A DNA stretch of 64,000 nucleotides from the NCBI RefSeq assembly GCF_003334815.1, contig NZ_QOWO01000011.1. One strand, 5' to 3'. Positions 36,001-39,000 of this stretch are shown here, one piece after another. Within the stretch, counting starts at the first letter, position 1. Each line of letters starts with the position of its first letter. The stretch is from Escherichia coli. Lineage in GTDB: Bacteria; Pseudomonadota; Gammaproteobacteria; Enterobacterales; Enterobacteriaceae. Made by a program: the position numbers.

Positions 36001-39000
36001 TTAAACTCCTTTCGTAAGTTAGCTAAGTCTTTTGAAGGTCTCTTAATGTATATTATTTCTATTATGTCTATACCATCAAGAAGTTTTTGTTGACCTCTAA
36101 GTTTGCCTAAGTAACTATTTATTTCTGTATATGTATCAACATTAGAACGCTTTGTTAAAAGAATAGATGCTGTTGCTATCGCTATGCCCGCTGTTTTTTC
36201 ATTTAGTATTTGATCATAGCCTTTTATTGCATCTCCACCCAGTTTTTCCGCAGTATCTCTGAATCCTTCAATGTTCCCATTGTATACGCCACCAGCAGCA
36301 AGTAGCCTGCCAATAGCTTTGCTGTTTAACGTTTTGAAACGATTATTTGTTTGGTTTTTTGAATTTGGTAAAAACAAACGGTTATAATTTTCAGGGAGTG
36401 CCAAATAGCTGAACTCGGTATTTGCGATAAGATGTTGACAGAGGATAAATTCATAACTAATAGTTATTGTTTCTGTATCCAGTTGGTTTTCAATGATCTG
36501 GTGATGAATAGCCGATAAAAAAGCGCCTCTTAGTTGTATATAATAATACTTTTCCAATCTACCAAATCTATTTATTCGATAGAAGTCAAATCCCATAAAT
36601 AATTGTTCATTATTGTTAATGGAATTAATAAATAATGGAGTGCTTTTATCAATTAATTTACAAAATGTTATACCATGGAACTGTGAACCAAGCCCCGTAT
36701 TATTAATATTATTTAAGAGTGAGAATGTAAATATTTCATCCTCATGCCCGCTCTGCCAACGATTACCTGTAGACTCAGAAGTCCCACAACCTGCGGAGAT
36801 GCTTCCTTGTTGTTCTCCCGTTACTGTCAGGTAAACAATATTACTCATCCCTGAAAAGTCCTTTTATGGCATGCTATTTTATCAATGGCAATATTATGCT
36901 TGTTAATTGTTATTTATTTACTCCAGGAAATTGTAGGCGTATATATTAAAAAATAAAATATTACACTTTAGGAAGTAATTATGAGTTAAATCTCAATATA
37001 TGTATTGGGCAAATAAATACCTTAAAGGAAGGTATGTCGATTTTGAATGACACCCTTTTTCCATCTCAGAAAAAGGGCACTATCTTACTTCACCCGCGCC
37101 ATATAATATGCATCGACATATTCACCATTACGCAATGCGTACTTCTTACCAGTCCCTTCAATTTCAAAGCCGTATTTTTTATAGACCTTAATTGCCGGGG
37201 CGTTATCGACAAACACGGTTAGTTCAATGCGATCTACCCGCAACCAGTTGTCGCACATTTCAATCATCTCTCGCATCAGGGCGCTGGCGACGCCGCGGTT
37301 CTTCCAACGAGAGTCGACACAGATACCAAAATCGGCAACATGACTGCGGCGTGGGCGCTGTTGCACGTCAATGGTGAGATGGCCCACGACGTCTCCATCA
37401 ATACAGGCGACGAGTTGCTTGATGCCGGGACGATCGGCGAGTCGCTCCTGCCACATATGATCGGAAGGATGAGGCACCTGTAGTGTGTTGCAATACACCT
37501 CCGGCTGGGCGTGAATCTGCCTGATGGCCTCGTAATCCCGTGTTTCTGCGTGGCGTATTACTATCTCACTCATTCCTTTGTCCTCTTTGGGGTAAATGTC
37601 CCTTTCAACATCATTGACTTTCAAATGCGAGTCAAATGCATTTTTTTGCAAAAAGTGTTGGACAAGTGCGAATGAGAATGATTATTATTGTCTCGCGATC
37701 AGGAAGACCCTCGCGGAGAACCTGAAAGCACGACATTGCTCACATTGCTTCCAGTATTACTTAGCCAGCCGGGTGCTGGCTTTTTTTTTGATCTTTCGTT
37801 CTCAATTTATCCACGGGAGTGCTTGTGTTCGTTATGCGCACTCCAGTAGGAACCACGTCCGCTTTGCGCTAAGGTGTAAATAACCACCTTAAAAAGGACG
37901 AAATCATGGTCATCAACTGCGCCTTTATTGGCTTCGGCAAAAGCACCACCCGTTACCATCTGCCGTATGTACTTAACCGCAAGGATAGCTGGCATGTCGC
38001 GCATATTTTTCGTCGCCATGCGAAGCCGGAAGAACAGGCTCCCATTTATTCCCATATCCATTTCACCAGCGATCTCGACGAAGTACTAAACGATCCCGAT
38101 GTTAAGCTGGTTGTTGTCTGCACCCACGCGGACAGCCATTTCGAGTACGCGAAACGCGCGCTGGAAGCCGGGAAAAATGTGCTGGTCGAAAAACCGTTCA
38201 CTCCGACACTTGCGCAGGCGAAAGAGCTGTTTGCGTTGGCGAAAAGCAAAGGGCTGACCGTCACGCCGTATCAGAATCGTCGCTTTGACTCCTGCTTCCT
38301 GACAGCGAAAAAAGCGATTGAAAGTGGCAAGTTGGGAGAGATTGTTGAAGTGGAAAGCCATTTTGACTATTACCGCCCGGTGGCAGAAACCAAACCTGGG
38401 CTGCCGCAGGATGGCGCGTTTTATGGCCTTGGTGTGCATACGATGGACCAGATTATTTCTCTGTTCGGTCGCCCGGATCACGTCGCTTATGACATCCGCA
38501 GCCTGCGTAATAAAGCCAATCCTGACGACACCTTTGAAGCGCAACTGTTTTATGGCGACCTGAAAGCCATCGTCAAAACCAGCCATCTGGTGAAAATCGA
38601 TTATCCGAAATTTATCGTTCACGGTAAGAAAGGTTCGTTTATTAAATACGGTATCGACCAGCAGGAAACCAGCCTGAAGGCTAATATTATGCCGGGCGAA
38701 CCGGGATTCGCAGCGGATGATTCGGTCGGTGTGCTGGAGTATGTCAATGACGAGGGCGTGACGGTCAGAGAAGAGATGAAGCCGGAGATGGGCGATTACG
38801 GGCGCGTTTATGATGCGTTGTATCAAACCATCACCCACGGTGCGCCAAATTACGTCAAGGAATCTGAAGTTCTTACCAATCTGGAAATCCTTGAACGCGG
38901 ATTTGAGCAAGCCTCTCCCTCCACAGTAACTCTCGCTAAGTAAGTTTGATGGCCCCTCGAATAGTTCAATTTTTTTGAACAGAGGGGTCAATTTTCACCC

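Follow-up and report, generated by a model that had tools for sequence, protein, structure and literature searches.

The small RNA (sRNA) RyhB of Escherichia coli K-12 is a ~90-nucleotide (nt) molecule that is made under iron limitation, is bound by Hfq and represses sodB and sdhCDAB, among other targets (PMC4509938, PMC4666370). About 50 genes are targeted, and the targets are mainly iron-using proteins (Wang et al. 2015, PMC4666370). In general, sRNAs are bound by Hfq at their U-rich 3' ends, and Hfq promotes the RNase E-dependent degradation of sRNA and target alike (PMC4666370), and the ryhB gene has been placed between yhhX and yhhY (PMC2189734). Here we describe the corresponding locus in a stretch of 64,000 nt of E. 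coli DNA (RefSeq assembly GCF_003334815.1, contig NZ_QOWO01000011.1), which is called the window throughout and whose numbering is used for all positions unless otherwise indicated. In our estimate, the probability that this locus is the chromosomal ryhB of an E. coli strain that is K-12-like in this region, and that it encodes the ~90-nt Hfq-dependent sRNA RyhB, is about 0.98.

Salmonella carries a RyhB-1/RyhB-2 pair. Other Enterobacterales have RyhB homologues and paralogues as well, such as the two-copy arrangements of Yersinia, Serratia, Photorhabdus, Pectobacterium and Pantoea. These have the same 28-nt core as the window, a promoter covered by a Fur box and a GC-rich terminator that carries a U-tail, and one copy per genome is usually found in a yhhY/yhhW/gntR neighborhood. 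However, their 5' parts vary in both length and sequence, and compensatory changes are present in the stems of their terminators. In Vibrionaceae and Aeromonas the 28-nt core is identical and a Fur-box-like sequence, AATGAGAATGGTTATTATT, is found upstream, but the genomic context differs from the yhhY-yhhX setting. In Vibrionaceae no terminator is detected within 45 nt of the core, which implies that the RNA has a longer 3' part. PrrF1 and PrrF2 of Pseudomonas (RF00444) are functional analogues, as they are Fur-repressed, iron-sparing sRNAs; no homology to them is detectable, however, and the PrrF model scores only 21.3 bits against a gathering score of 90 (E = 0.64).

Compared with these systems, the locus in the window is that of K-12. 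Every base at positions 37695-37789 of the plus strand agrees with the 95-nt ryhB feature (b4451) of strain MG1655 (100% identity), and the promoter, the Fur box, the terminator and both flanking genes are also the same, with no difference at the locus. When both strands of the whole window were scanned with Rfam 15, the RyhB family (RF00057) was matched at 37724-37788 (+) with 83.1 bits, against a gathering score of 55 (E = 3.6e-14). All model positions (1-67) were matched and the match is not truncated; that it begins 29 nt past the transcription start is explained by the Rfam model, which spans only the 3' two-thirds of RyhB. RF00057 was the sole family at or above its gathering score in the 64 kb, and a single RyhB copy is present there. 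A permissive local Rfam scan of 37000-38200 for additional or antisense RNAs yielded only the sub-threshold PrrF match, which lies on RyhB itself. Furthermore, the nucleotide numbering used by Wang et al. 2015 (C28, C37, U51 and U68, with a hairpin C37-U51 and a region C28-U68; PMC4666370) fits exactly if position 37695 is taken as +1.

A preliminary description made from the sequence alone had recognized RyhB on the plus strand, and had proposed alignment to the covariance model and to K-12 ryhB as a check. Both alignments bear out the assignment, with a score far over the gathering score and full identity over 95 nt, and neither a poor covariance-model score nor a disrupted terminator hairpin was observed. 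The end given in that description, 37784, is exactly nucleotide 90 counting from 37695, and the annotated feature extends to 37789; an RNA of ~90 nt, the size usually given for RyhB, would end in the U-run near 37784. The features expected of RyhB, namely a conserved single-stranded target-pairing core, a Rho-independent terminator with a long U-tail and an orthologous position between yhhY and yhhX, are all present. The sequence contains nothing that argues against the identification, and identity to K-12 makes Fur control, Hfq binding and expression probable in the present strain as well. The locus is already known: it is the textbook ryhB, one of the best-studied bacterial sRNA genes, and in this sense the finding is ordinary.

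A consensus scan of 37400-38000 detected a single sigma-70-like site, the ryhB promoter; none was called for yhhX or for the divergent gene yhhY. The promoter is made of TGGACA, an 18-nt spacer and TATTAT (10/12 matches), and transcription is predicted to start at G37695. The Fur box was scored by counting matches to the consensus GATAATGATAATCATTATC. Positions 37674-37692 gave 16/19 matches on the minus strand and 15/19 on the plus strand, which are the top two scores among ~128,000 window positions (next best, 14/19). A second site, offset by 6 nt (37668-37686), has 14/19 matches, and the overlapping sites form the hexamer array GCGAAT-GAGAAT-GATTAT-t-ATTGTC, an architecture typical of strong Fur operators. 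The Fur-box-like array that had previously been noticed over the promoter contains the best consensus match in the window. It overlies the -10 hexamer and ends 3 nt upstream of the start site, so that the hallmark of the Fur regulon, a Fur box overlapping the core promoter, is found at ryhB. The box is near-invariant across 32 Enterobacteriaceae copies. At K-12 ryhB, four Fur sites clustered within 31 bp at -15 (25.2 bits) have been confirmed by gel shift, and the site used in those experiments is the same in sequence as the site in the window (Chen et al. 2007, PMC2189734).

Just upstream of the -35 hexamer, a perfect palindrome, TTTTTGCAAAAA (37643-37654), is found inside an A/T tract that is kept as TTTTTTGCAAAAAG in the 32 Enterobacteriaceae copies. 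The T-run of the tract is T7 or T8, depending on the E. coli strain. The tract resembles an UP element, and may be considered a putative one.

The RNA can be divided into three parts. The 5' stem-loop is predicted from conservation: RNAalifold retains its outer pairs in 26-28 of 28 Enterobacteriaceae copies, which show no compensatory changes, and the interior differs in sequence and length. The central part is the target-pairing region; the segment C28-U68 is the one that served for hybridization analysis in Wang et al. 2015 (PMC4666370). The 3' part is the terminator, with a stem at 37763-37781 made of AGCCAGC and GCUGGCU (7 pairs, 5 of them G-C) and a 5-nt loop, CGGGU. Eight more T follow the stem, giving a run of nine at 37781-37789. 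The terminator scan thus detects an intact 7-bp stem with a U-tail, in agreement with the early proposal that the RNA has a terminator of its own. The role assigned to the terminator and the poly-U in Hfq binding is taken from published work (PMC4509938, PMC4666370). A second terminator-like hairpin at 37812-37827 was discarded as a chance structure: it has 6 pairs, only 3 of them G-C, and a poor T-tail, lies in a non-conserved stretch, and hairpins of this kind occur in the number expected by chance.

Two observations limit the structural support for the identification. RNAalifold recovered the 5' stem, a small central stem and the terminator from the 28 Enterobacteriaceae copies, but the number of compensatory pairs was 0, as the stems are invariant and hence uninformative. 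In addition, the single-sequence fold of RyhB is no more stable than shuffled controls (z = -0.59), and was not used as evidence. For these reasons, the structure is supported by the Rfam model and by the compensatory variants of the terminator stem found in a wider set of more distant genera: GCCCGC/GCGGGC, AGCCCGC/GCGGGCT, GCCGGC/GCCGGC, GGGCCAG/CTGGCCC and AGCCCAC/GTGGGCT.

Conservation was examined at several distances. Of the 5426 complete E. coli genomes, 5425 contain the 332-bp yhhY-yhhX intergenic region with an identity of at least 95%, and the median is one place per genome. Five divergent E. coli strains show no change in the RNA between +1 and the last base of the terminator stem; their single-base insertions or deletions (indels) affect the T-run that precedes the promoter, the T-run of the terminator (T8/T9/T10) and the sequence downstream. 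Among the 32 Enterobacteriaceae copies, the invariant parts are the promoter with the Fur box, the core (seed) and the stem of the terminator. The inside of the 5' hairpin and the loop of the terminator are variable and contain indels whose lengths are not divisible by three, and conservation collapses straight after the terminator T-run. This pattern fits an sRNA gene. The terminator T-run has eight T in strain ST2350, nine in the window and ten in strain A29. The U-tail is part of the module bound by Hfq and has an effect on termination, and such variation could therefore tune RyhB output.

The 28-nt core, GCACGACATTGCTCACATTGCTTCCAGT (37728-37755), has exact matches in at least 120 DNA stretches of Enterobacterales, Aeromonas and Vibrionaceae when one genome per species is scanned, often two per genome. 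Many genera have two RyhB-core loci per genome, among them Yersinia, Photorhabdus, Serratia, Pectobacterium, Pantoea, Mixta, Brenneria and Acerihabitans, and also Erwinia, Pluralibacter and, within Enterobacter, one species. In Salinivibrio, two copies lie in tandem, ~300 bp apart (loci L067 and L087).

Homology with other species breaks past the terminator, from 37789 to about 37847. The spacer found on the 3' side of the terminator is 59 nt long in the window (~37790-37846) and is non-homologous between species. In Escherichia albertii it spans ~180 nt and contains repeats similar to repetitive extragenic palindromic (REP) elements (L012, 8120-8300), and in two Enterobacter genomes it spans ~770-1060 nt and harbors a convergent open reading frame (ORF) of 226-229 amino acids (aa) (L013, 3914-4603; L022, 906-1586).

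A mechanism can be proposed in which the sequence parts are those observed here and the biochemistry is that published for the identical K-12 sequence. The parts are a Fur operator over the core promoter, a transcript unit of ~90 nt whose core is conserved and unpaired, and a terminator that ends in a U-tail. In iron-sufficient cells, Fe2+-Fur would occupy the overlapping sites, which extend over the -10 hexamer up to 3 nt from the start, and would thereby exclude RNA polymerase from the promoter. Under iron shortage, Fur would depart, and transcription would proceed from 37695 to the intrinsic terminator at 37763-37789, whose hairpin and U-tail would double as the module bound by Hfq. The single-stranded central region (approximately nt 28-68) would then pair with mRNAs of non-essential iron-using proteins, and pairing would cause a translation block and RNase E-dependent decay of both RNAs, thereby sparing iron. 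A few targets, shiA and cirA, would be activated rather than repressed. The features of the locus are listed in Table 1.

Table 1. Features of the ryhB locus and its surroundings (window positions, except in the row for strain MG1655).
Feature	Position	Strand	Basis or remark
ryhB gene (sRNA RyhB)	37695..37789	+	Identity to b4451; RF00057; nucleotide numbering of Wang et al. 2015
ryhB in K-12 MG1655	NC_000913.3 3580922-3581016	minus	Annotation, 95 nt
A/T tract TTTTTTTGCAAAAAG	37641..37655	+	Read from sequence; about -54 to -40 from the ryhB start
ryhB promoter, -35 hexamer TGGACA	37659..37664	+	Promoter scan; GACA invariant across Enterobacteriaceae
Fur box, overlapping 19-mers 37668-37686 and 37674-37692	37668..37692		Consensus score, conservation, published gel shift
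ryhB promoter, -10 hexamer TATTAT	37683..37688	+	Promoter scan; invariant in Enterobacteriaceae alignment
5' stem-loop of RyhB	37695..37729	+	Outer stem GC.AUCAGG / CCUGAA.GC, variable interior; RNAalifold consensus
Target-pairing region, nt 28-68	37722..37762	+	Includes the 28-nt core 37728-37755
Rho-independent terminator / Hfq-binding 3' module	37763..37789	+	Terminator scan, single-sequence fold
95-aa ORF, ATG start	37596..37883	+	Mechanical ORF list; across promoter, Fur box, sRNA and terminator
yhhY (N-acetyltransferase)	37085..37573	-	K-12 annotation mapped; divergent from ryhB, between ryhB and the island
yhhX (oxidoreductase)	37906..38943	+	116 nt downstream of the ryhB terminator, same strand
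Low-GC accessory island (yrhB, yrhD, yrhA, yhhZ)	~34408..37084		Context only, outside the ryhB unit

An additional role of the ryhB transcript deserves consideration. Besides acting as an sRNA, it might also be the 5' leader of a read-through ryhB-yhhX operon, and yhhX would then be regulated by Fur and iron in the same manner as setA is reached via sgrS. Several observations are consistent with this possibility: yhhX starts 116 nt past the terminator on the same strand, no other sigma-70-like promoter was found between 37400 and 38000, and an in vivo selection of Fur sites had at first attributed the ryhB site to yhhX (PMC2189734). Moreover, Morita et al. 2015 have shown that read-through at the ryhB terminator is frequent, and have described ryhB as a gene that 'seems to be co-transcribed' with yhhX, which is a suspected but unproven arrangement (PMC4509938). 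However, the promoter scan is crude and blind to weak or non-sigma-70 promoters; the spacer past the terminator is not conserved, as shown by the REP-like repeats of E. albertii and by the convergent 226-229-aa gene of two Enterobacter genomes; outside Enterobacteriaceae, yhhX is absent next to ryhB; and iron depletion, the very condition that induces ryhB, enhances termination (PMC4509938). On balance, we consider the leader role unlikely, albeit not far-fetched. A stronger version is somewhat less likely still: read-through might supply much of yhhX transcription in E. coli, making ryhB-yhhX a Fur-controlled sRNA-mRNA operon like sgrS-setA, with the shares of sRNA and leader set by stress-enhanced termination and by the length of the T-run (T8 to T10). 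Because the spacer is non-conserved and termination is stronger under iron stress, any coupling between ryhB and yhhX would be minor and lineage-specific.

On the other side of ryhB, the preliminary description had regarded the gene as abutting the yhhZ island, and had called this position notable, since sRNA loci are frequently neighbors of insertions. The first statement does not hold: the core gene yhhY, complete, separates ryhB from the island, whose edge lies at ~37084, ~610 bp from the ryhB start. The limits of the island could be established by comparison with E. albertii, one divergent E. coli and Enterobacter cloacae. In these genomes the island is absent, and the positions equivalent to 34407 (end of ggt) and 37085 (end of yhhY) lie within ~60-90 bp of each other; the island therefore spans ~34408-37084, where the 3' ends of ggt and yhhY face each other. 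Its GC content is 0.29-0.34 (about 34500-37100), compared with about 0.5 in the flanks, and it is accessory, as at least 80% of its length is found in 3758 of the 5426 complete E. coli genomes. YhhZ belongs to the Hcp1 family and is predicted to have an HNH/His-Me nuclease domain (PMC5714182).

The notion that the island targeted an sRNA gene, such genes drawing insertions in the way of tRNA and transfer-messenger RNA genes, can draw support from its accessory nature and low GC content, from the variability in other species of the spot just 3' of the ryhB terminator, and from one Enterobacter genome in which ~5.6 kb separate ryhB from yhhY. Nevertheless, neither junction touches ryhB, the island is flanked by the convergent 3' ends of ggt and yhhY, and at its edge neither a direct repeat of ryhB sequence nor an integrase is evident. 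Likewise, no att-like duplication of ryhB 3' sequence was seen at the island border, and no islands bounded by the ryhB terminator were seen in other strains. The history of the locus points in the same direction. The order yhhY-ryhB-(yhhX)-yhhW-gntR is kept as far as Yersinia, Serratia, Pantoea, Erwinia and Rahnella, with yhhX adjoining ryhB in Enterobacteriaceae only, and yhhZ is found in none of those loci. Since the yhhY-ryhB linkage reaches Yersinia, Serratia, Pantoea and Erwinia, all without the island, the pairing is older than the island, which was not inserted next to the sRNA gene. The idea that the island targeted ryhB was rejected on the basis of its mapped junctions, and we regard a meaningful relationship between them as very improbable.

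Finally, an ORF of 95 codons, open from an ATG, had been called across the ryhB region (37596-37883). This ORF is a chance open frame and not a gene, as the preliminary description had suspected. Each of the five other E. coli strains examined has a shortened frame (26, 26, 84, 64 and 84 aa) with a changed C-terminus; the cause is single-base indels in homopolymer runs, and the RNA is unchanged in the same strains. The nine T of the terminator would lie within the stretch translated as FFL. No NCBIfam match was found for the 95-aa ORF or for a 53-aa ORF nested in it with a TTG start, and the best Pfam hit had E = 1.5; hence neither a conserved frame nor a homologue or family match, either of which would denote a protein-coding gene, was found. 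In the RefSeq records inspected, produced by the Prokaryotic Genome Annotation Pipeline (PGAP), no coding sequence is annotated at 37596-37883, and the K-12 record annotates only the non-coding RNA there. A coding gene that overlaps or replaces the sRNA has practically no chance of being real, given that, apart from its 95 open codons, the ORF begins upstream of the ryhB promoter with no promoter of its own in the scan, runs through a functional intrinsic terminator, and crosses a region with non-triplet indels across genera. For annotation, the identification of ryhB is useful in showing that an ORF called mechanically across a core intergenic stretch is spurious; otherwise its significance is small. 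Because PGAP records leave the region unannotated, an automated scan may easily take it for empty or coding.

Additional observations concern the strain and its island. The window is in reverse orientation relative to MG1655 and is 100% identical to it over 35284-42711. In the vicinity, the strain differs from MG1655 by the absence of IS1E in yrhA and by two substitutions in about 5.8 kb. The strain is thus K-12-like at the locus but is not MG1655, as indicated by its uninterrupted yrhA. Without the IS1E of MG1655, yrhA is an intact ORF of 164 aa (35179-35673, minus strand) that lies downstream of yhhZ and overlaps its 3' end by 4 nt. A 9-bp overlap between two BLAST segments at 35284-35292 marks the IS1 target-site duplication.

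Insertion of IS1 in or at the 3' end of yhhY (window ~37085-37130) was detected in at least two unrelated strains, YPE10 (L003, 4091-5246) and fS149a (L129, 256-1451). The insertion shortens the annotated yhhY from 489 to 465 nt and leaves ryhB untouched in both strains. The element of fS149a, which falls inside the yhhY-ryhB-yhhX query, was considered as a candidate disruption of ryhB and was discarded on account of its location in the 3' end of yhhY. In YPE10, IS1 occupies the place of the yhhZ island, which is missing altogether; this suggests an IS1-mediated deletion.

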